Positions 1,781-24,012 are shown, counted from the first letter of the stretch. The stretch is DNA of 32,000 nucleotides from Synechococcus sp. A15-28 (GCF_014280175.1 NZ_CP047931.1:2010001-2042000), one strand, 5' to 3'. Numbers and translations are program-made. The notes: generated by a model from the sequence alone, not told the origin.

Positions 1781-2506
1781 TCACACCTCTTCGAGGGTTC
1801 TTTCCATCAATTTGAGCTCGATCTGGTCGCGCCACTGGAACAAGGGCTGCAATTTGGGATGGTCACTCAGACCTGGCACACCCTTGCCAGCCAGAGCAAC
1901 ACCGGCGGAGGAGGGGAAGCGCAGCAACGACAGCTGAGCTGCCACGGCGATGTCCGCCAGGGTCATGCTGTCGCCCACCAACCATGGGCTGGCCTGTACG
2001 GATGTGGCGAGCTGCTCCAGGCTCGCCAGCAGATCGGCCCGCTCCCCCTGGTTCACCAGTTCGGTCACGTTGTTGACCCAGCCGCCGGGGATCGCCCCCA
2101 TCACCGACCGCACGGGGTCGGGCAGATCGTCGGGCAGCAGGGCGACCCGCAGCTCCGGGTCCAATGCCGCCGCTTGCACCAGAGCCGTGCGACCGGCCAT
2201 GGCCAGGGTGGTGTCCGCCCAGTCCTCGAGCAGATGCATCTGGGACGCCTGGCGCGGGTCCGTTGGAATCAGGGCTGGATCGGGCTCCCGCTGCTCCAGA
2301 TGACGGGCGATGGCAGAGGAGTCCGCCAGCACCTGTTCCCCATCCACCAGCACCGGCACCTGCCGCTGTCCAGAGAGGCGGAACACCGCCACCTGGCCGA
2401 TGCCGGGGGTCACCTCCACCGTGCGGAAACTGAGGCCTTTGGCCTGCAGCGCCATGCGCACCTTCAGACAGAAGGCGGAATGGCGGAATTGATGGAGCTC
2501 CAGCAT
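1781..2506 (-). CDS. Glutathione S-transferase family protein
   Basis: N-terminal thioredoxin-like GST fold motif (MLELHQFRHSAFCLKVRMALQAKGLSFRTVEV ... QVPVLVDGEQVLADSSAIARHL) and a helical C-domain (LVGDSMTLADIAVAAQL). Start chosen at ATG 2506. In-frame alternatives at 2521 and 2551 would nearly abut the divergent gene. Confidence 0.8.
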   Translation of the reverse strand: MLELHQFRHSAFCLKVRMALQAKGLSFRTVEVTPGIGQVAVFRLSGQRQVPVLVDGEQVLADSSAIARHLEQREPDPALIPTDPRQASQMHLLEDWADTTLAMAGRTALVQAAALDPELRVALLPDDLPDPVRSVMGAIPGGWVNNVTELVNQGERADLLASLEQLATSVQASPWLVGDSMTLADIAVAAQLSLLRFPSSAGVALAGKGVPGLSDHPKLQPLFQWRDQIELKLMERTLEEV

Positions 2507-5995: not shown

Positions 5996-6780
5996 GCCAG
6001 CCGCTGCAGAACTGCACGGTGGTGGTGACCCGCGCCGCCGACCAACAGGGAGAAGCCAGGCGCCTGCTGCAAGCCCAGGGTGCGCAGGTGCTCGACCTCC
6101 CCGCTCTGGTGATCGGCCCCCCGGACGACTGGCGCCCCCTGGACGATGCCCTGGCGGAGCTGGAGGAGTTTCACTGGCTGGTGGTATCCAGCGCCAATGG
6201 GGTGCAGGCGGTGGAACAGCGCTTGCAACGCCAGGGGGGCAGCCTGTTGCGGCGACCGGCCAACCTGCGCATCGCCGCCGTTGGTCGCAAAACCGCCAGA
6301 GCCCTTGACGATCTCGGCGCAGAGGCGGATTTCGTGCCGCCAAGCTTCGTGGCCGACAGCCTGATCGAACACTTTCCCGTGTCCGGCTATGGCCTGCGGA
6401 TGCTCCTGCCGAGGGTGCAAAGCGGTGGCAGAACCGTGCTGGCGGAGGCCTTCGGGGAAGCGGGGGTGAGGGTGGTTGAAGTGGCGGCCTATGAGTCCCG
6501 CTGCCCCGACGCCATGCCGGATGGCACCGCCGATGCCCTGGCGGCTGGAACCGTGGACGCGCTGCTGTTCAGCAGCGGCAAGACGGCCGCCCACACGGCA
6601 CAACTGCTGCTGCAGCGCTTCGGGCCAGGCTGGGAAGAGCGGCTGGCCTCGTCGAAGATCGTGTCCATCGGCCCCCAGACCAGCCAGAGCTGCCGCCAGT
6701 CGTTCGGTCGCGTCGATGGGGAAGCCGATCCCCATGACCTGGAGGGGCTGGTGGACGCCTGCTGCCGGCTACTGAGGTGA
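5992..6780 (+). CDS. hemD: Uroporphyrinogen-III synthase
   Basis: HemD-like pattern: VVVTRAADQ ... WLVVSSANGV ... IAAVGRKTA ... LLFSSGKTA ... IVSIGPQT. TTG start at 5992 overlaps the upstream stop (TTGA). Confidence 0.8.
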   Translation: MSQPLQNCTVVVTRAADQQGEARRLLQAQGAQVLDLPALVIGPPDDWRPLDDALAELEEFHWLVVSSANGVQAVEQRLQRQGGSLLRRPANLRIAAVGRKTARALDDLGAEADFVPPSFVADSLIEHFPVSGYGLRMLLPRVQSGGRTVLAEAFGEAGVRVVEVAAYESRCPDAMPDGTADALAAGTVDALLFSSGKTAAHTAQLLLQRFGPGWEERLASSKIVSIGPQTSQSCRQSFGRVDGEADPHDLEGLVDACCRLLR

Positions 6781-15499: not shown

Positions 15500-16468
15500 T
15501 CACAGCATCGGGTCCTGACGTGCGGGCATCGGGGCGGCGCCACTGAACATCGGTGTGGAGAGATAACGCTCGCCGTAGCTGGCGAGCATCACCACCACGC
15601 GCCGTCCCTGCAGCTCGGGCCGCTGTCCCAACCGCAGAGCCGCAGCCACGGCAGCACCACTGCTGATCCCACAGAGCAGGCCCTCCTCTCGGGCCAGCCG
15701 ACGGCCCACGTCCATGGCCTCCTCGTCGGACACGGTCATGACCGCATCGATCAGATCAAGATCGAGCACCGCAGGGACGAACCCGGCACCGATGCCCTGA
15801 ATGCGATGGGCGCCTGGCGCCTGGCCTGACAACACAGCACTACCAGCCGGCTCCACCGCCACCACCTGCAAATCCGGTTGGCGCTGCTTCAGCAACCGCG
15901 CACAACCGGTGATGGTGCCGCCGGTGCCGACGCCGGCCACCAGGGCATCCAGCTGGCCGTCACAGTCGTACCAGATCTCTTCAGCGGTGGTGCGCTCGTG
16001 CACCGCAGGGTTCGCCGGGTTGTCGAATTGCTGCAACAGATAGGCCTCAGGGATCTCCTCCACCAACTCCTTCGCCAGGGCAATGGCTCCAGCCATGCCC
16101 TGGGCACCATCGGTGAGCTGCAGCTCAGCGCCGTAGGCGCGCAGCATCGAACGCCGTTCAGTGCTCATCGTGTCCGGCATGGTGAGGATGAGCCGATAGC
16201 CCCGAGCGGCGGCGACCATCGCCAGGGCAATACCGGTGTTACCGCTGGTGGGCTCCACCAGCACGGTTCGTCCCGGCTGAATCGTGCCCTCCTGTTCCGC
16301 TGCCAGCACCATGGCGCTGGCAATTCGATCCTTCACCGAAGCCGAGGGATTGAAGCTTTCCAGCTTGGCGACCACATCGGCCCCACAGCCAAACTGCGCT
16401 GGAAGGCGGTTGAGACGAACCAGGGGCGTGCCTCCGATCAGGCCAGTGATATCGGAGGCGATGGCCAT
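15500..16468 (-). CDS. cysK: Cysteine synthase A (O-acetylserine sulfhydrylase)
   Basis: [11 protein letters not shown], the PLP-lysine motif [31 protein letters not shown] and GISSGAA are canonical CysK/CysM motifs. Confidence 0.92.
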
Positions 16469-16478
16469 GGCAGTGGGG

Positions 16479-18464
16479 TCAGAAACGGAAGACCGACTGA
16501 ATCAAACCGCCAAAAATGCCGAAGGTCGATGCGCCGTCCTGGTCCTGATCACCGCTGAGGTTGGCGGTGTAATGACCCAATGGACGCGACATCCAGAACA
16601 CCGATGGCGTGATCTGAATGTTGTCGGTGACCTGGAAGGAGGCGTAAAGCTCCACCAGATAGTTGGCATCGTTGGCGGTGTATCCACCAGCGAGCTCCGT
16701 CGCAAAGTTGGGCATGCCGAAGCTGACGCCGAGGTCGTTGCCGACATCAAACACGTCGTCCCATTTGAGGCCAACGAACCAGGATTGGCTGGCCACAGGG
16801 GAGTACTTGAAGAATCCCTTACCGGTGATGGCACTGCGGGCGTAGCCCACAGACACTGAGGGAACCCAGCCGGTCTCCTGGGGCACCCAATAACCATTCA
16901 AAGCGAAGTTGTGGCTGTTGCGCTCACTGCGCTCGGCGATGTAGTCGCCCTGATAGAGATCTTCTTCCGTCCAATTCCAGACGTCACGCCAACATTCATT
17001 GTTGAATGAATCATCCATCATGAAATTGGTGCCACGGCGCTGCCCCGTACCGCACTGGCCGTAGCGGTAAGCGAAGGCGACGCCGTATTCCTCTCCACCC
17101 CAGCCGGTCTGGATGAGGAAATTTCCGCGGGAGTTATTCGTGAACAGGCCACCGAGCACTGGATCACCGTCACCACCATCCTCAGCCACGTAGTTCATCG
17201 AGAGTGAGAAGGCCGGGTCACCCTTGTTTTCGGTCTTCTCCTTGTAAATCACTCCGAACAGCGCACCCGTGGCTTTGTTGTAAACGTTGGAAGCACCGGC
17301 CAGTCCGGTCCAATCGAGGATACGAGCACCGCCCCGGTTGTAGGCCGAGGGCCACATTCCCAGACTCTCGGTGTTTCTCGCCATCGGACCAACGATGAAG
17401 GTGAGCGAGTGATCAATCAATTCGTCATTCTTGAGAGGGAAGCGGTAATACAAACGACCCAAGCCAAGAATATCGTCCGTACAAGGTGCTGTACTGAGCT
17501 TCGTCAAAGCCACACCATCGCCAGCAAAGGCGTTATCGCAGAAGTTACCCGCCGTGAAACTTGCATAAAGAAGATCTTTCCCTGTGAAAGACGTCTTCAG
17601 GTTCAGCTTCTGTTCATAGTTAAAGGTGGCAGCGCCGTACTGACTGTTGTAAGCGCGGGTTCCTCCCCCTGAGCCATCTTTTTTCCAGGCTTTATGGTCC
17701 CGGAATTTACGGGAACGAATGTCTTTGTAGTGCTTCTCAAGCTTGGTCCCTTTGATGATCTCGGTACCGCTTTTGCCGTCTTTTTCCTTCAATGAACCAT
17801 CGCGGTTATGAACAGCCCGCCAGGCCTTGCGGGTCTTCTGCCATGAGCGGCTGTTCTGCGTCGAGCCGAGGGGCGACTCACGACCATCAATTTCGACAAT
17901 CTGGTGCTTCTGGTCGTAATCCCAGTAGTACTTGGAACCATCATTGGTGCCATAGGCCTTGGTGGAGCCCATGGTGAAGGTGCTCTTGCCCTTCAATTTG
18001 GTGGTGGTGGAGAACTGGCTGGCTTCCAGGGAGCCAACTCGATCCTCCAGCAGCATGATGCTGCCGGCCACAAAGTTGAGTTCGGATTCGAATTCCTTCA
18101 GCAGCTGCTCCACCTCTTCGGTCATCTCCGTGACGCGATCAAGGCAGGATGCCAACAGCGCCGCCGCTTCATAACGGGTGATCGGGATGTAGCCGCGGAA
18201 GCTGCCGTTGGGGTAGCCAGCCACACATCCATAGGTTTTTACCAACCTCACCAGGGCCTGATAGGCCCAGTCCGTGGGGTATACATCATTGAACTGATTA
18301 ACACTGGTGACCTGCTGGAGCAGTTGCTTGGCTTGTTCAAGATCGAGGGTCGCAGAGTAATCCGAAACCGAGTCAATGTTGAGGTCGGCAGCTTGTGCCG
18401 AAAGGGGAGCAATCAAAAACGTCAGTGCTGCTGGAGCGACCAAAAGGTGCTGGAGCAGTTTCAT
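16479..18464 (-). CDS. Outer-membrane porin 1 (SLH domain + coiled coil + OprB-like beta-barrel), with a unique 94-aa basic insertion
   Basis: Signal peptide [25 protein letters not shown]; SLH motif [28 protein letters not shown]; heptad-like linker; barrel ending ...[10 protein letters not shown]. Start at ATG 18464; the upstream track extension covers the 5'UTR. Confidence 0.88.
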
Positions 18465-18666
18465 ACCAATCCCCTCAACTTCCTGCAGGAAGCATTTCAA
18501 CAACAAACTGAAGGTACCGGACGTGGGGTGTGGTGCTAGTCCATTAACCCACCGTTAAACACAATAAAAAAGCCCCCCTGATAGGGGGGCTGATCTGTGT
18601 GAGGAACAAGTCTGAAAACCCGACCGAAGTCGGGCCGTTGAATCAGAACTTGAAGACGGTCTGAAC
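18375..18666. repeat. Repeat R1, copy A (porin-2 last codons + Yfr1-like module + porin-1 promoter/5'UTR + signal-peptide codons)
   Basis: Aligns by eye with 20418-20708 (offset about 2042-2044). The central 70 nt are nearly identical. The porin-1 5' part is roughly four-fifths identical. Confidence 0.85.
18563..18636 (-). ncRNA. Yfr1-like RNA module, copy 1 (also the terminator region of porin 2)
   Basis: Minus strand: GGCCCGAC-UUCG-GUCGGGUU hairpin, then UUCAGACUUGU-UCCUCACAC-AGAUC unpaired, then AGCCCCCC-UAUCA-GGGGGGCU hairpin plus UUUUU. The motif shares 9 of 11 nt with the Yfr1 core ACUCCUCACAC and the architecture is the same. Confidence 0.5.
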
Positions 18667-20148
18667 GACGCCACCCCACTGAGACGCATCATCCACACCC
18701 TGAGACTGCTCAGGAAGGTAGAAGACTGCAGGAATGACTGAGATTTTGTCAGCCACCTTCAGCTTGAGGGAAGCTTCGATAGCAAGTTCAGGGGAATCAG
18801 GGTCATCGCCCTTTTGAGAGACAACGTACTGGGGGGCACCGAATCCGACAGCAAGCTTATGGCTTGTCTTTGCCAGCTTGTCCCACTGGAAACCAACCAT
18901 CCAGCTAGCAAGTTCTTCAACGTCAGAACCCTCAAGGGAGGAGAATCCATAACCAGCGCTGATTGAAGGAATCAGACCAGTCTCAGAAGGCTTCCAGAAA
19001 CCGTTGAGAGCAAAGTTATTGGAGTAGACATCGGTGCCCTTAGCGCAACTTTGCTCCTTAAAGAAGCCAGTTCCAAAACCTGCTTTGCACTGACCGTAGC
19101 GATAGCCGAAGGCAACACCCCACTTTTTAGATCCGTAGCCAATCTGGGCAGTCGTATTAGCACGTGAGTTGGAGCCGAACATGCCACCCGCGGTGGGATC
19201 GCTGTTCTCTGCTTCTCCAGCATCGGCGACATAGTTCACGGCAACAGTGAACTTAGGGTCCCCTTTAGCTACCTTCTGCTTCCAGATCAAGCCAACCAAA
19301 CCGCCGGTTTCTTTGTTGTAGACACCAGGTGTGCCCCAGTGACCACCAAACATGTTGAGGGTCTTCACTTTGTAAGCCGAGGGCTTCATACCCAAGCTTT
19401 CAGTATTCCGAGCCAGAGGGCCTACAATCGCGGTCAGGCCTTTTGCAACAGGGAAGCGATAGTAGAGACGATCAACTTCCATGACGTTTCCAGACATTCC
19501 GGAAACATCCAGCTTGCGCAATCCACCGGAGAAAGCAGACCCATCCTTCATGTTGCCACCGCGCAGGCGGGTGAAGAGAAGATCCTTACCAGTGAAAGAA
19601 GTCTTCAGACCAAGACGCAAGTCATAAGAGAAACTCAAGGCGTCATAGGCAGATTTGTCTGCGTCAGCCTCAGAATTAATGGCACCTGTAACGAAGGTAG
19701 CCTTACCTTTCAGCTTGGTGGTGGTGGAGAACTGAGTGGCTTCCAGTTCGCCAACGCGAGCTTCCAGACCGTCCACGCGGCCGCGGATCACAGCCAGCTC
19801 GGTTTCGAATTCTTTGATCAGACGACGCAGCTGATCGGTCACCTCGGTGATGCGGTCGAGGCAAGCGTTCAGCAGGGCAGCCGCTTCATAGCGGGTCATG
19901 GCCCGGTTGCCACTGAAGGTGCCGTTGGGGTAACCGGCGACGCAGCCGTAACGCTCGATCAGGTTGGCGAGTGCCTGGTAGGCCCAGTCAGTCGGGTAGA
20001 CGTCGGAGAACTGGGTGATGCTGGTGACCTGCTCTTCGGATGCCGAGTAGTCGGACACACCGTTGATGTTCAGGTCTGCGGCGTTGGCGCCGGAGGCCAG
20101 GAGGCCTAGGGCGGCAGGCGCTACCAGCAGTTGCTGGAAGAGTTTCAT
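18643..20148 (-). CDS. Outer-membrane porin 2 (SLH + coiled coil + OprB-like barrel)
   Basis: Signal peptide [23 protein letters not shown]; SLH motif [28 protein letters not shown]; C-terminal ...VVQTVFKF. ATG 20148 has GAGGA 6 nt upstream. The GTG 20160 extension would begin inside the SD. Confidence 0.9.
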   Translation of the reverse strand: MKLFQQLLVAPAALGLLASGANAADLNINGVSDYSASEEQVTSITQFSDVYPTDWAYQALANLIERYGCVAGYPNGTFSGNRAMTRYEAAALLNACLDRITEVTDQLRRLIKEFETELAVIRGRVDGLEARVGELEATQFSTTTKLKGKATFVTGAINSEADADKSAYDALSFSYDLRLGLKTSFTGKDLLFTRLRGGNMKDGSAFSGGLRKLDVSGMSGNVMEVDRLYYRFPVAKGLTAIVGPLARNTESLGMKPSAYKVKTLNMFGGHWGTPGVYNKETGGLVGLIWKQKVAKGDPKFTVAVNYVADAGEAENSDPTAGGMFGSNSRANTTAQIGYGSKKWGVAFGYRYGQCKAGFGTGFFKEQSCAKGTDVYSNNFALNGFWKPSETGLIPSISAGYGFSSLEGSDVEELASWMVGFQWDKLAKTSHKLAVGFGAPQYVVSQKGDDPDSPELAIEASLKLKVADKISVIPAVFYLPEQSQGVDDASQWGGVVQTVFKF

Positions 20149-20225
20149 GAGATTCCTCACACCAAAATTGAGGGAAGTGGACAGAGAGTCCTACAGGAAA
20201 ATACTGGTGAAGGAAAAGTCTGCAC
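19707..20225. repeat. Repeat R2, copy A (porin 2 N-terminal third + 5'UTR)
   Basis: Identical to 21875-22393 at offset 2168 except G/A at 20002/22170, G/A at 20197/22365, and a few changes beyond 20210. Weaker similarity continues to about 20290. Confidence 0.92.
20152..20162 (-). promoter_or_regulatory. Porin 2 Shine-Dalgarno region with GUGUGAGGAAU box (predicted Yfr1 / Yfr1-like pairing site)
   Basis: mRNA sense is UUUUGGUGUGAGGAAUCUC-AUG. The box is complementary to GUUCCUCACAC of the modules at 18597-18607 and 20640-20650. Confidence 0.55.
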
Positions 20226-20376
20226 AGGAGGCCGCACTGTTATGTGTCCATTACTACGCCTTAACCAGTTTAAGCTTAGGTTAAATAACTAGGTTGAAGG
20301 TTGTTAGCCAAAGACAACCCAGCTCACAAAAGGTGGGTTGAGGAAGAAAGCACAAGTAGAGATTCTTCGTTGCTAA

Positions 20377-20506
20377 TTAGAAAATGAAGTTGGACTTCAC
20401 ATAAGCACCGTCAACATAATGTTGAGATCCGCAGCTTGTGCTATTTGAGACCAATCAAAAATGTCAGGGCTGCCGGTGCGACCAAAAGGTCCTGGAGAAG
20501 TTTCAT
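20377..20506 (-). pseudogene. Remnant of a fifth porin: porin-1-like signal-peptide codons fused to porin-4-like last 14 codons
   Basis: From ATG 20506 it reads [21 protein letters not shown]-stop, compared with porin 1 [30 protein letters not shown]. Out-of-frame AQAADLNI codons are then joined at about 20418-20421 to YVDGAYVKSNFIF-TAA, compared with porin 4 DYVQGAYVKTTFTF. A degenerate copy of the porin-4 terminator follows at about 20320-20345. Confidence 0.7.
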
Positions 20507-20708
20507 ACTCATCCCCTCAAATTCCTGCAGGAAGCATTACAACAACAAACTGAAGGCACCGAACTTGGGGAGTTGTGCTAGACCCCATTAACCCATTACT
20601 AAACACAATAAAAAAGCCCCCCTGACGGGGGGCTGATCTGTGTGAGGAACAAGTCTGAAAACCCGACCGAAGTCGGGTTATGAATCAGAACTTGAAGACG
20701 GTCTGAAC
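20418..20708. repeat. Repeat R1, copy B
   Basis: See copy A (18375-18666). Confidence 0.85.
20607..20680 (-). ncRNA. Yfr1-like RNA module, copy 2 (also the terminator region of porin 3)
   Basis: Minus strand: AACCCGAC-UUCG-GUCGGGUU, then UUCAGACUUGU-UCCUCACAC-AGAUC, then AGCCCCCC-GUCA-GGGGGGCU plus UUUUU. It differs from copy 1 only at the base of hairpin 1 (AA vs GG, both able to pair with UU) and in the loop of hairpin 2. Confidence 0.5.
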
Positions 20709-22316
20709 TACACCGCCGAACACACCAACGGACTTGTCGTCGGGAGTCTCGAATCCGTAAGGACGAGAAAGCCAGTAAATCGCAGGGGTTACAGCAATTT
20801 TGTTGGTGACCTGGAACTTGTACCAGAGCTCCATGGCATAGTTGCCATCGGCAACAAAATCACTTTCGCCTTTGCGATCAACCTTAGTCACGAACCGTGG
20901 CTGACCAATAGCAGCTCCAAGGGCGTTCTTCTTCTGGAAAACATCATTCCAAGTAAGACCCACCATCCAAGAGGCCATCTCACGGATTTCGGTCGCATCC
21001 TCCCAGTCATCGTTGCCATTGCTGTAGGAAGCACCAACACCCGCACTAATGGAAGGAATCATGCCTGATTCCTCAGGGCGCCAGAAGGCATGGAGTGACC
21101 AGTTGTGGCTATCGGCATCAGAACGAACTTCTTTGCCGTCTTTATTTTCAACGGTGCAAGAAGTGTCGCCCTTACCAGCGAACTCTGTACCAGTACGGAA
21201 TTTAGCTCCGCACTGTCCGTAGCGATAACCAGCGGCAAGGCCCCATCTCTTGGTTCCGTAGGCAATCTGGCTGGTAATGTTCGCTTCGGAGTTATCGGTC
21301 ATGAAGCCACCCGAATTGGGGTTGCTATCTTCACCCTCTCCGGAGTCAGCAATGTAGTTAGCGGCAAGAGTCCAGTAAGGATTGCCCTTTCCTGCGCTCT
21401 TCTTGTTGGTGTAGATCAGACCGAAGCCGCTGCCAGTTTCCTTGTTCCAAACGCCGGGGGTTCCCAGAGAACCACCGAAGAAGTCGAGAACCTTCTGGCC
21501 ACCCTTAGCATAAGCACTGGCCTTGTAGCCCATCATTTCGGTGTTGCGGGTCAGAGCACCGATCTGAGCCTTAAATCCGCTGCCCAGGGGGAATCGATAG
21601 TACAAACGATCAATCTCAACAGCGTTGCCGCCAGGAGCACCAGTGTCAAGCTTGTTCAAGCCAACACCGTTGCCATCCCAAACCGAGGCATCGCCCTGGT
21701 TGCCGACACGTAGGCGAGTGAAGAGCAAATCCTTACCAGTGAAGGACGTCTTCAGACCCAGGCGCAGGTCATAACTGAAGGTGAAAGCGCCGTACTCAGC
21801 GTTGTAGTCATCCTTCATATTGCCAGGGTTATCACCAAGAGCTTTGGTGGCACCCATGACGAAATTCGCCTTGCCTTTCAGCTTGGTGGTGGTGGAGAAC
21901 TGAGTGGCTTCCAGTTCGCCAACGCGAGCTTCCAGACCGTCCACGCGGCCGCGGATCACAGCCAGCTCGGTTTCGAATTCTTTGATCAGACGACGCAGCT
22001 GATCGGTCACCTCGGTGATGCGGTCGAGGCAAGCGTTCAGCAGGGCAGCCGCTTCATAGCGGGTCATGGCCCGGTTGCCACTGAAGGTGCCGTTGGGGTA
22101 ACCGGCGACGCAGCCGTAACGCTCGATCAGGTTGGCGAGTGCCTGGTAGGCCCAGTCAGTCGGGTAGACATCGGAGAACTGGGTGATGCTGGTGACCTGC
22201 TCTTCGGATGCCGAGTAGTCGGACACACCGTTGATGTTCAGGTCTGCGGCGTTGGCGCCGGAGGCCAGGAGGCCTAGGGCGGCAGGCGCTACCAGCAGTT
22301 GCTGGAAGAGTTTCAT
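20685..22316 (-). CDS. Outer-membrane porin 3 (SLH + coiled coil + OprB-like barrel)
   Basis: The first ~150 residues are identical to porin 2. The barrel is divergent and ends ...GGVVQTVFKF. ATG 22316 has GAGGA upstream. Confidence 0.9.
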   Translation of the reverse strand: MKLFQQLLVAPAALGLLASGANAADLNINGVSDYSASEEQVTSITQFSDVYPTDWAYQALANLIERYGCVAGYPNGTFSGNRAMTRYEAAALLNACLDRITEVTDQLRRLIKEFETELAVIRGRVDGLEARVGELEATQFSTTTKLKGKANFVMGATKALGDNPGNMKDDYNAEYGAFTFSYDLRLGLKTSFTGKDLLFTRLRVGNQGDASVWDGNGVGLNKLDTGAPGGNAVEIDRLYYRFPLGSGFKAQIGALTRNTEMMGYKASAYAKGGQKVLDFFGGSLGTPGVWNKETGSGFGLIYTNKKSAGKGNPYWTLAANYIADSGEGEDSNPNSGGFMTDNSEANITSQIAYGTKRWGLAAGYRYGQCGAKFRTGTEFAGKGDTSCTVENKDGKEVRSDADSHNWSLHAFWRPEESGMIPSISAGVGASYSNGNDDWEDATEIREMASWMVGLTWNDVFQKKNALGAAIGQPRFVTKVDRKGESDFVADGNYAMELWYKFQVTNKIAVTPAIYWLSRPYGFETPDDKSVGVFGGVVQTVFKF

Positions 22317-22393
22317 GAGATTCCTCACACCAAAATTGAGGGAAGTGGACAGAGAGTCCTACAGAAAAATACTGGTGAAGCAAAAGCGATCAC
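21875..22393. repeat. Repeat R2, copy B (porin 3 N-terminal third + 5'UTR)
   Basis: See copy A (19707-20225). Confidence 0.92.
22320..22330 (-). promoter_or_regulatory. Porin 3 Shine-Dalgarno region with GUGUGAGGAAU box
   Basis: Identical to the porin 2 site (part of repeat R2). Confidence 0.55.
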
Positions 22394-22475
22394 AAGGGTC
22401 CGCACAATTTTGTGTCTATTACTACACTTTAAACAATTTAAGGCAAGTTTAAAGGCCAAAGTGGCAGTTAAAGGC

Positions 22476-22505
22476 AAAAAAAACCCACCTCATAAGAGGT
22501 GGGTC
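22476..22505 (-). terminator. Intrinsic terminator of porin 4
   Basis: Minus strand: ACCCACCU-CUUAUG-AGGUGGGU followed by UUUUUUU, about 38 nt after the porin 4 stop (22543). Confidence 0.75.
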
Positions 22506-22542
22506 GGAAAAGAAAGAACTAGTGGAGGTTCTTCGTTGGCGA

Positions 22543-23994
22543 TCAGAAGGTAAATGTGGTCTTCACGTAAGCACCTTGGACGTAATCACTTGAAAGATCG
22601 CCGGAATACTCATCAATGATGAAGTAAGTCGGCGTGACGGTGATGTTGTCGGTAACGGCAAACTTATAGAAGATTTCCCACATCATGTTGTAGTCGTCTT
22701 CGATTTTAGGAGCCTGACCGATGGCTGTGCCGAATGAGTTACCTTCAATGCCAACATCAGACCACTCAAAACCGGCGTACCAGCTGGTGATCTCTTCGTC
22801 TGAATCTTCAGGGTTAGACAATGAGTAACCACCACTCACAGAAGGAATGATACCTGAATCTGCAGGTGCCCATGCTGCAGCAATGCTGAAGCCATGACGG
22901 CTGTCACCAGCTTCAGCAGCTGCCTTGTTGGTGCCGATGGTCAGGCCAACATTTTGCGCGTAGGCATAACCAACTTGAGCCAAGAAGCTACCTTCAGCGA
23001 CTTCACCTTCATAGAAAAGCTGCCAAGAAGATGTCGAACCGGTTTCATCACGGCCAATGCCCGTACTGCTTCCATCCCATGCGACGTAGTTGCCGCTGAG
23101 TTTGAAACCAGAGTCTCCAAGCGTATAAATACCACCCAAGCCGGCGCCGGTGCTAGCCAGGTTGTTGGTTGCCCAGGCACCGCCATAGGTGAAGAAGTCC
23201 AGCAGCAGGTCGGAGGGGTAGAAGGTTGCATAGCCGGCGTACATACCAGGGTCATCCGTCCTCACCACAGGACCAGCTGTCACCGTCAGGTTCTCACCAA
23301 CAGGGAAGGTGTAGAACAAGCGACCGATTTTGACGGTGTTACCGGAGGACATGGCGGTCTCAACAAAGGTGAGACCTTCATCCCAGACGGAGGGACCGAA
23401 GTTACCGGAACGCAGAACGGTCGTCAGCATGTCCTTACCCGTGAAGGACGTCTTCAGAGCAAGACGAAGGTCGTAGTTGAAGGTGAGTGCCTCACCCTCA
23501 TCATCGTCGAAACCTTCAGCAGCACCAAAGACCCAAGCGGAGTAACCCTTCAGCTTGGTGGTGGTGGAGAACTTGGTCGCTTCAAGTTTGCCGACGCGAG
23601 CCTCGAGACCGTCGACTTTGCCGGCGATCATTGCGAGTTCTTTCTCGAACTCAGAAATAAGACTCTTGAGTTGATCGGTCACCTCGGTGACGCGATCGAG
23701 GCAGGCATTCAGCAGGGCAGCCGCTTCATAGCGGGTCATGGCCCGGCCACCACGGAAGGTGCCGGTGGGGTAGCCGGCCACACAGCCGTACTGCTCCACC
23801 AGGTTGCTCAGAGCCTGGTAAGCCCAGTCGGTGGGATAAACGTCAGAAAACTGGGTGACGCTGGTGACCTGATCCTTCTTGGAAGAAGAGGAGTACTCAG
23901 CAACACCATTGATGTTGAGCTCGGCGGCATTGGCACCGGAGGCCAGAAGGCCAAGGGCGGCTGGAGCCACCAGCAATTGCTGGAAAAGCTTCAT
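22543..23994 (-). CDS. Outer-membrane porin 4 (SLH + coiled coil + OprB-like barrel)
   Basis: Signal peptide [23 protein letters not shown]; SLH motif [28 protein letters not shown]; the most divergent and acidic barrel, ending ...AYVKTTFTF. Confidence 0.9.
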   Translation of the reverse strand: MKLFQQLLVAPAALGLLASGANAAELNINGVAEYSSSSKKDQVTSVTQFSDVYPTDWAYQALSNLVEQYGCVAGYPTGTFRGGRAMTRYEAAALLNACLDRVTEVTDQLKSLISEFEKELAMIAGKVDGLEARVGKLEATKFSTTTKLKGYSAWVFGAAEGFDDDEGEALTFNYDLRLALKTSFTGKDMLTTVLRSGNFGPSVWDEGLTFVETAMSSGNTVKIGRLFYTFPVGENLTVTAGPVVRTDDPGMYAGYATFYPSDLLLDFFTYGGAWATNNLASTGAGLGGIYTLGDSGFKLSGNYVAWDGSSTGIGRDETGSTSSWQLFYEGEVAEGSFLAQVGYAYAQNVGLTIGTNKAAAEAGDSRHGFSIAAAWAPADSGIIPSVSGGYSLSNPEDSDEEITSWYAGFEWSDVGIEGNSFGTAIGQAPKIEDDYNMMWEIFYKFAVTDNITVTPTYFIIDEYSGDLSSDYVQGAYVKTTFTF

Positions 23995-24000
23995 GGGGGG

Positions 24001-24012
24001 TCCTCACACAGA
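24001..24012 (-). promoter_or_regulatory. Porin 4 Shine-Dalgarno region with UCUGUGUGAGGA box
   Basis: mRNA sense is UUUUCUGUGUGAGGACCCCCC-AUG. There are 12 contiguous Watson-Crick pairs with UCCUCACACAGA of the modules. Confidence 0.55.

Follow-up and report, generated by a model that had tools for sequence, protein, structure and literature searches.

How does the motif of a small regulatory RNA (sRNA) come to stand directly behind the stop codon of a porin gene, when porin mRNAs are themselves targets of that sRNA? The question is raised by a 32-kb stretch of the genome of Synechococcus sp. A15-28 (the window), in which three tandem porin genes, here named porin A, porin B' and porin B, lie on the minus strand and the last two are each followed by a short module bearing the motif of the cyanobacterial sRNA Yfr1. 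Judged from the sequence, the balance is about even that this module is a seed of Yfr1/Yfr10 type embedded in the 3' untranslated region (3'UTR), co-transcribed with the porin and acting in trans on porin ribosome-binding sites (RBSs). Coordinates below are window positions unless a locus is named; loci numbered with L are those fetched from picocyanobacteria, with L007 from Synechococcus MIT S1220, L093 from RS9907 and L095 from KORDI-52.

After the stop codon TGA of porin B (18645-18643), the minus strand reads UUCAAC, a UUCG-capped hairpin (hairpin 1), a 25-nt linker UUCAGACUUGUUCCUCACACAGAUC (18616-18592) that contains the 9-mer UCCUCACAC, and a further hairpin (hairpin 2, 18591-18571) that runs into UUUUUAUU, with ~72 nt from hairpin 1 to the U-tract. 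This is exactly the minus-strand arrangement that a sequence-only reading of the DNA had described for 18563-18636, with its two hairpins, UUCG cap and motif of Yfr1 type. The ultraconserved 11-mer of Yfr1 is ACUCCUCACAC (PMC2190773), and 9 of its 11 nt are present in the window, as had been counted before, in the form GUUCCUCACAC; some relatives reach 10 of the 11, as UCUCCUCACAC in L090. When the module was folded with RNAfold, both hairpins formed and the motif was left unpaired, with a minimum free energy (MFE) of -35.3 kcal/mol (z = -4.6 against 200 shuffles). The fold also contained a basal helix under hairpin 1, in which the end codons and the stop of the porin, CAAGU-UCUGA (18652-18643), pair with UCAGACUUG (18615-18607). 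With this helix, ~15 nt are left truly unpaired; without it, the unpaired stretch has the 25 nt of the linker.

The motif proved to be the exact complement of GUGUGAGGA, a sequence present at the RBSs of all three porins of the array. Neither this relation nor the published family of RNAs sharing the motif (PMC2518516; PMC6778093) had been noticed in the earlier reading. Exact occurrences of UCCUCACAC in the window number five: each 3' module holds one, and the remaining three are antisense words at the porin RBSs; the 9-mer alone is not rare there, with 7 matches at up to one mismatch against 8.6 expected. Over 12 nt, the linker segment UCCUCACACAGA pairs with UCUGUGUGAGGA at porin A, and the duplexes at the three porins occupy ranks 1-3 among the 92 start regions of the window (mean -11.7 kcal/mol, standard deviation 4.2). 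A site GUGUGAGGA within 25 nt of the ATG was found in 106 of 137 porins. The RBSs of the som porins PMM1119 and PMM1121 of Prochlorococcus MED4 are the sites at which Yfr1 acts as a repressor, as the sequence-only reading had stated for som-type porin mRNAs, and seed mutations UCCU to AAAA or CC to GG abolish this repression (PMC2796815).

The sites of the orthologs bear on the direction of such pairing. Eight porin B orthologs carrying the module have GUGUGAGAAC as their own site, which gives 7 contiguous pairs only, whereas the porin A upstream in the same loci keeps a perfect GUGUGAGGAA site with a match of 11-12 nt to the module. A weakened own site together with a perfect site at porin A favours action in trans, with the paralog as the best target. 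From these sequences, module-bearing porin B orthologs may escape seeds of Yfr1 type while porin A stays sensitive to them. The start regions of porin B in L002, L005, L006, L087-L091, L093 and L095 mostly show a weakened GGUGUGAGAAC in place of GUGUGAGGA.

Conservation was followed in 80 porin loci from species-representative genomes, together with loci of close relatives and cultured strains. The 8-mer CCUCACAC was present in sense in 46 of 158 porin 3' flanks and at 40 of 89 loci, at most 120 nt after the stop and between stop and terminator. Dinucleotide shuffles gave a mean of 0.84 and a maximum of 4 in 200, a 55-fold excess for the real flanks, and the antisense word was found twice. Once terminator words were set aside, CCUCACAC was the commonest 8-mer of porin 3' flanks; at other open reading frames (ORFs) it was found in 28 of 1717 cases, many of them antisense artefacts of porin RBSs. 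The carriers comprise genomes of Synechococcus, Cyanobium, Vulcanococcus and Aphanothece as well as metagenome-assembled genomes, and the conservation at orthologous porin ends that had been called for extends to non-orthologous ones.

The motif is also consistently accessible. Over 44 folded 3'UTRs, its mean probability of being unpaired was 0.91 vs 0.54 for the whole UTRs, and its median position was 34 nt past the stop and 32 nt ahead of the U-tract. At least three unrelated scaffolds present it: the type of the window (type I), in which it lies in a linker from hairpin 1 to the terminator; the loop of a hairpin of 7-13 bp whose stem sequence is wholly different between lineages (type II; for example L018, L023, L025, L032, L038, L012, L015, L021, L047, L064 and L080); and a bare single strand before the terminator (type III). 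That one exposed 8-mer is kept on scaffolds that cannot be aligned argues for selection at the RNA level. In one Vulcanococcus porin 3'UTR (L015, ~1976-2090, plus strand), UCCUCACAC occurs twice at a distance of 21 nt, and a hairpin loop holds the first occurrence; L021, L022 and L050 show a degenerate version of this layout, CUCCUCACGCG…CACUCACACA.

The scaffold of the window was found in 12 sequences at the syntenic position, in the order porin A, porin B, module, PALP and DnaJ, and it is carried by the cultured clade II strain RS9907 (L093 7657-7747, which is CP047944.1 2279892-2279982, minus strand). In these 12 sequences, 7 of the 8 pairs of hairpin 1 change on both sides and 96% of the cells are paired, vs 26-65% when the partners are slid, in an alignment fitted to the model, which favours structure. 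Read as its reverse complement, the box UCAGAAC after hairpin 1 gives the final porin codon with the stop (GUUCUGA). The basal helix is present in the MFE fold of every member of the window type, with GUUCUGA/UCAGAAC pairing in 11 orthologs, and the box was seen in 12 of 158 porin 3' flanks, an enrichment over the 1.15 expected, with three unrelated scaffolds among them. Because this helix can form only when porin coding sequence is on the same RNA molecule, the element is part of the porin transcript and is co-transcribed with it. The suggestion that hairpin 1 plus UUUU might be a weak or leaky terminator was rejected: the U-tract after hairpin 1 is found only in the window, the orthologs reading GGGUCAUCAGAAC, GGGCCUUCAGAAC and similar, and in a terminator scan only hairpin 2 scored. 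The model R1, with which the two window copies score 78.9 and 72.2 bits, matched many porin 3' ends; its weak matches reflect stop-codon context plus terminator and were excluded as evidence. Several relatives have the scaffold with an altered linker. In KORDI-52 (L095 4647-4760), hairpin 1, the UCAGAAC box and the terminator are kept and the motif reads CCUCACCUACAC; L003 and L087 have one point change each in the motif, and in L016 hairpin 1 is followed directly by the terminator.

The relation to Yfr1 itself is one of likeness rather than of family membership by the criteria tested. The Rfam model of Yfr1, RF01116 (PMC12873609), gave no match in the whole window at its gathering threshold of 38 bits, and none over 18000-23000 even at E<=10, an outcome that the sequence-only reading had named as speaking against it; its match to the porin 3'UTR of L025 (5693-5747) was sub-threshold, at 26 bits and E 0.55. 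The top sub-threshold Rfam matches, JA04, RsmY and anti-hemB, share the generic shape of hairpin, linker and terminator, lie far below threshold and were discarded. By the criteria tested, the module thus falls outside the Yfr1 family, and the term Yfr1-like, given to it in the sequence-only reading, is right as a functional analogy only; the architecture, the motif of Yfr1 type, the link to porin regulation and the unusual place in a 3'UTR that were described there are all real. Both RNAs expose the seed core UCCUCACAC(AC) as a single strand, with a 5' stem-loop on one side and a terminator hairpin on the other; the validated targets of Yfr1 are mRNAs of som/OprB-type porins, bound at the RBS (PMC2796815; PMC2190773). 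Yfr1 has two stem-loops, 16-20 unpaired nt and a length of 54-69 nt, compared with two stem-loops, 25 unpaired nt (~15 with the basal helix) and ~72 nt from hairpin 1 to the U-tract in the module, whose 5' helix is partly coding and which has 9 of the 11 motif nt.

The locations differ as well. Canonical yfr1 lies in the guaB-trxA spacer of all nine marine Synechococcus strains examined, in agreement with the sequence-only reading (Voss et al. 2007; PMC2190773), whereas the module is fused to a porin coding sequence (CDS), starting 6 nt past the stop, and the guaB-yfr1-trxA context is not that of this locus. In the clade II strain CC9605, canonical Yfr1 maps at 1.766 Mb, far from the som pair at 2.176-2.180 Mb, so that a porin-linked element in clade II would be an addition to yfr1 and not a relocated copy. 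Coexistence of the module with canonical yfr1 in one genome is presumed from CC9605 and from Voss et al. (2007).

A closer counterpart is provided by the RNAs that have the Yfr1 motif in common and little else in sequence, structure or synteny: Yfr10, Yfr12 and Yfr18 of MED4, Yfr104 of MIT9313 and the 'Yfr10-like' RNAs of SS120 and WH8102 (PMC2518516; PMC6778093). The literature defines Yfr10-like RNAs no more strictly than by an exposed Yfr1 motif, the other sequence being free (PMC6778093), and in the module the core UCCUCACAC is unpaired. Yfr10 has its motif in a hairpin loop (PMC6778093), like the porin 3'UTR elements of type II. The published members are free-standing and poorly conserved, being found in high-light (HL) Prochlorococcus next to or upstream of yfr2-5 (PMC2518516; PMC6778093), and none has been described as a porin 3'UTR. 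The probe sequence of the WH8102 'Yfr10-like' RNA was absent from the window and from the 80 fetched loci, and in one metagenome scan it gave five chance matches in unrelated coding sequences. No Yfr1-type motif in porin 3'UTRs was described in the literature searched, which did not cover Gierga et al. 2012, and the Yfr10-like RNA of WH8102 is possibly a porin 3'UTR. The finding would thus combine a known seed family, that of Yfr1/Yfr10, with a 3'UTR-embedded regulator for which no published description was found.

The following mechanism is proposed. The module would be a structured part of the 3'UTR of the porin B mRNA, without a promoter of its own, and would be made whenever transcription of porin B runs through to hairpin 2. 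The two-tier stem and the terminator hairpin would hold ~15 nt single-stranded and display the Yfr1/Yfr10 seed UUCCUCACACAGA, which could act while still joined to the full mRNA or after release as a 3' fragment. In porin mRNAs, GUGUGAGGA overlaps the Shine-Dalgarno (SD) sequence, and by pairing with this site in trans the seed would lower translation; its best partner would be the upstream paralog porin A (12 bp) and, in the window, also its own mRNA (10 bp). Porin paralogs would thereby feed back negatively on themselves and regulate one another, so that more porin B mRNA would mean less porin A. Sequence, fold, complementarity, conservation and accessibility are observed here, and repression of som porins at their RBSs by this seed is known from the literature; that the 3'UTR copy acts likewise, and is perhaps cleaved off the mRNA, is proposed. 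In CC9605 in situ, porin A (Syncc9605_2367) is among the top 50 start sites, whereas som (Syncc9605_2366) is weak with no start site detected; the paralogs are thus differentially expressed, as a porin switch would require. The stop-codon helix could in addition couple seed activity to porin translation.

Several known systems share parts of this logic. The sRNAs OppZ and CarZ of Vibrio cholerae derive from 3'UTRs and pair with the RBS region of genes of their own operon, giving feedback. In the 3'UTR of the icaR mRNA of Staphylococcus aureus, a C-rich motif is complementary to the SD sequence of the same mRNA; the module of the window resembles it as a C-rich anti-SD motif matching the RBS of its own mRNA over 10 nt, but most module orthologs match the RBS of the paralog better than their own. 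The micF/ompC-ompF system of enterobacteria has the same reciprocal porin logic, one porin locus yielding an antisense RNA that blocks the RBS of another porin; MicF, however, is a divergent separate gene, not a 3'UTR, and is unrelated in sequence. In cyanobacteria, ApcZ of Synechocystis is a 3'UTR-derived sRNA (PMC8136909). As in OppZ, CarZ and ApcZ, the regulator would lie at the 3' end of an mRNA, use the terminator of that mRNA and expose a conserved seed; in the module, by contrast, processing, stability and activity are predicted, and its seed duplicates that of a global sRNA, as theirs do not. Among the features of 3'UTR-derived (type II) sRNAs, the 3'UTR place, the shared terminator and an accessible, conserved seed complementary to predicted target mRNAs were found in the module, and a consensus scan gave no promoter.

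A number of results weigh against a trans-acting seed. The motif was absent in many porins of marine subcluster 5.1 and in the sampled Prochlorococcus porins, and it is lost or degraded in L003 (CCUUACAC), L087 (CCUCAAAC), KORDI-52 (CCUCACCUACAC) and L016 (none); its absence or decay in several lineages indicates that it is dispensable. Its many instances are not phylogenetically independent. No co-evolution of module and own RBS was detected beyond the core of 8-9 nt, the match being 8.8 nt with the own site and 8.8 nt with unrelated loci. Constitutive self-repression seems costly, as porins are abundant proteins. The conservation between the two window copies could reflect a gene-conversion tract, since the 100 nt downstream are also 86% identical.

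Different explanations of the exposed motif were weighed on the same evidence. The seed could be a sponge or docking site for sRNAs of the Yfr2 family, the porin mRNA titrating Yfr2 or being stabilised or destabilised by it, which would link the level of porin mRNA to the Yfr1-Yfr2 network. At its 5' end, Yfr2 looks like a porin RBS, and it binds and neutralises the Yfr1/Yfr10 motif, relieving the repression of PMM1121 (PMC6778093); the seed of the module is exposed; and L007 has a genuine Cyano-1/Yfr2 gene, scoring above threshold at 56 bits, with the RBS-like 5' end GGUUGUGAGGAAA beside a Yfr10-like element 3' of a porin. This clustering of porins, motif-bearing RNAs and Yfr2 makes docking of Yfr2 a live rival, and one not mutually exclusive with the trans-acting seed, although it appears unlikely, no Yfr2-family (Cyano-1) gene having been matched anywhere in the 32-kb window. 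In L007 (5917-6007, minus strand, and 6072-6138, plus strand), the Yfr10-like element and the Cyano-1/Yfr2 gene are divergent; the element is antisense to the porin, directly at its 3' side, and has one of its two motifs in a hairpin loop and the second before a terminator. A seed that is physically part of the mRNA might fold back strictly in cis on the SD sequence of that mRNA, as in icaR, closing it to ribosomes or making it accessible to RNases. For the window this is attractive, the own RBS being a perfect 10-nt partner at -21.1 kcal/mol, but the module does not co-vary with the own site, the eight orthologs described above pair better with the neighbouring porin A, and a nearer anti-SD, UUCCUUCACCAG, appears to be present already within the porin B 5'UTR. 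A purely cis role, one of three options left by the sequence-only reading, is thus weakened and rather improbable, and among those options the regulator borne by the 3'UTR fits best.

A free-standing yfr1/yfr10 paralog abutting the porin, with its own promoter within the end of the porin CDS and a primary sRNA of ~70 nt, would account for the two hairpins around the seed and for the Yfr1-like layout and length; the sub-threshold Yfr1 match in L025 and the Yfr10-like genes that do adjoin porins, as in L007, are in its favour. However, a consensus scan of the minus strand gave no sigma-70-like site, a negative of weak weight, and what precedes hairpin 1 is the constrained end of the CDS, ...UUCAAGUUCUGA. 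The conserved basal helix requires coding nucleotides in the same RNA, RF01116 is silent, and no start site is among those listed at the 3' end of CC9605 som, where expression and coverage are low, the nearest being the transcription start site (gTSS) of cysteine synthase ~115 nt downstream. A separate gene is thus quite improbable. The least probable explanation, to which we give very little credence, is that the C- and A-rich stretch has no regulatory role, being terminator-proximal composition or passively inherited with porin duplications. It agrees with the (CA)n-rich spacers that follow the motif, with its decay in several lineages and with a possible origin of the identity of the window copies by gene conversion, but not with the 55-fold excess over dinucleotide shuffles, the strand bias of 46 vs 2 or the retention of a consistently unpaired motif on unalignable scaffolds.

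The sequence-only reading had stated that the module occurs twice. A second copy does follow porin B', with its stretch from hairpin 1 to terminator at 20679-20607 and a linker 100% identical to that of copy 1, but it reflects a mosaic repeat. In the 5'UTR and the SLH N-terminus, porins B and B' are 96-100% identical; in the barrel the identity falls to 33-77%, in the final ~90 nt of the CDS it is 55%, and it then rises to 90% in the module and 86% in the 100 nt that follow. As both copies sit in this mosaic repeat, they are not independent inventions. A module with 90% identity beside coding sequence with 55% could result from selection on the module or from a gene-conversion tract, and because both fit, little weight was placed on the paralog pattern. 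The mosaic blocks are 19721-20220 with 21889-22388, and 18647-19720 with the barrel of porin B'; the pattern suggests that the units recombined or underwent gene conversion, or that selection diversified the barrel, perhaps under pressure from phages or nutrients. After copy 2, the segment 20449-20584 (minus strand) is 88% identical to 18407-18542, a stretch that covers the start of the 661-aa gene downstream of porin B (~20 codons) and the region before it, and this copy ends in a stop (…GGTCTCAAATAG) as a truncated duplication remnant. The features of the locus are listed in Table 1.

Table 1. Porin genes, module parts and predicted target sites in the window of Synechococcus sp. A15-28
Feature	Position	Strand	Description
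Porin A	22543..23994	-	483 aa, SLH + OprB (Pfam)
Porin B'	20685..22316	-	543 aa, SLH + OprB (Pfam); carries module copy 2; mosaic identity with porin B
Porin B	18643..20148	-	501 aa, SLH + OprB (Pfam); carries module copy 1
SLH/OprB gene	16479..18464	-	661 aa; downstream of porin B
Module copy 1, whole (basal helix, hairpin 1, seed linker, terminator)	18563..18652	-	Folds; model R1, 78.9 bits
Basal helix, 5' arm CAAGUUCUGA	18643..18652	-	Last porin codons (K, F) + stop; MFE pairing with 18607-18615
Hairpin 1, GGCCCGAC-UUCG-GUCGGGUU	18617..18636	-	Covariation across 12 sequences
Basal helix, 3' arm UCAGACUUG	18607..18615	-	UCAGAAC box in orthologs; MFE fold, conservation
Exposed seed UUCCUCACACAGA	18594..18606	-	Core UCCUCACAC at 18597-18605; P(unpaired) 0.80; complementary to three porin RBSs
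Intrinsic terminator, AGCCCCCCU-AUC-AGGGGGGCU + U-tract	18563..18591	-	Terminator scan; helix 2 conserved, 98% paired
Module copy 2	20607..20694	-	R1, 72.2 bits; follows porin B' stop TGA 20687-20685
Copy 2, basal arms	20685-20694 and 20650-20658	-	
Copy 2, hairpin 1	20660-20679	-	
Copy 2, seed core	20640-20648	-	
Copy 2, terminator	20615-20634	-	
Porin A RBS, predicted target UCUGUGUGAGGA	24001..24012	-	12-nt perfect complement, 6 nt upstream of ATG 23994; -24.0 kcal/mol
Porin B' RBS, predicted target GUGUGAGGAA	22321..22330	-	10-nt complement upstream of ATG 22316; -21.1 kcal/mol
Porin B RBS, predicted target GUGUGAGGAA	20153..20162	-	10-nt complement upstream of ATG 20148; -21.1 kcal/mol

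At the 3' end of porin A, a plain terminator was seen and the module was not found. Homologs of porin B are named iron uptake porin or som, and the nearest relatives are 'iron uptake porins' of Synechococcus. The 661-aa gene, with its SLH/OprB tail, is an extra gene between porin B and PALP and is missing in most syntenic relatives; at the matching place in RSCCF101 (L097 4935-6767) there are an ORF of 490 aa and an OprB fragment of 100 aa. The 661-aa gene of the window has the RBS GAGGGGA, without a GUGUGAGGA site, and no motif at its 3' end; beyond it the gene order continues with PALP (CysK-like), DnaJ and PMT. The GC content of the porin array (16000-24000) is ~52-57% vs ~63-68% in the surrounding genes. 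A putative conserved promoter, TTTAAA…GTAGTAAT, was read by eye, with no scan, at ~20243-20262 and ~22412-22432 (minus strand), ~100 nt upstream of each ATG of the porin B type, implying a 5'UTR of ~97 nt. In the MFE fold of the porin B 5'UTR, the RBS GGUGUGAGGAA pairs with the upstream UUCCUUCACCAG (20200-20215 with 20153-20165, minus strand), which would be a cis anti-SD; over the whole 5'UTR, this SD-sequestering fold was not significant (z = -1.35). Other lineages have CCCUCA…UGAGG or UCCUC…GAGGA arrangements upstream of the RBS site.

The proposal of a trans-acting porin 3'UTR seed is directly testable, since the cultured strain RS9907 carries the module, and the loci that keep the scaffold without the seed (L095, L003, L087 and L016) are natural 'mutants' useful for comparative expression. 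Such 3'UTRs may have given rise to free-standing Yfr10-like genes of the kind that adjoins a porin in L007, and the porin 3'UTR seeds are a plausible evolutionary source of the poorly conserved Yfr10-like sRNAs. A bolder reading, which we regard as possible but doubtful, is that in Synechococcus and Cyanobium the mRNA of a porin has two functions, encoding the protein and taking part, through its 3'UTR seed, in the Yfr1/Yfr10-Yfr2 network, where it would repress the mRNAs of its paralogs and compete with Yfr1 for Yfr2. If true, it would provide a switch between porin types and a competing-RNA circuit built from some of the most abundant transcripts of the cell.

Few cyanobacterial sRNAs are as well conserved as Yfr1 and Yfr2, yet their physiological logic is unsettled. 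A Yfr1 seed inside the 3'UTRs of the best-validated targets of Yfr1, at ~45% of the sampled picocyanobacterial porin loci, points to an unrecognised layer of this network, and a regulator of this kind would, if confirmed, be only the second reported from an mRNA 3' end in cyanobacteria, after ApcZ. Picocyanobacterial porins govern the uptake of nutrients and iron and are also phage receptors. If the seed acts as proposed, it would bring mRNA-borne feedback and cross-talk to the outer-membrane porins of globally abundant phototrophs.

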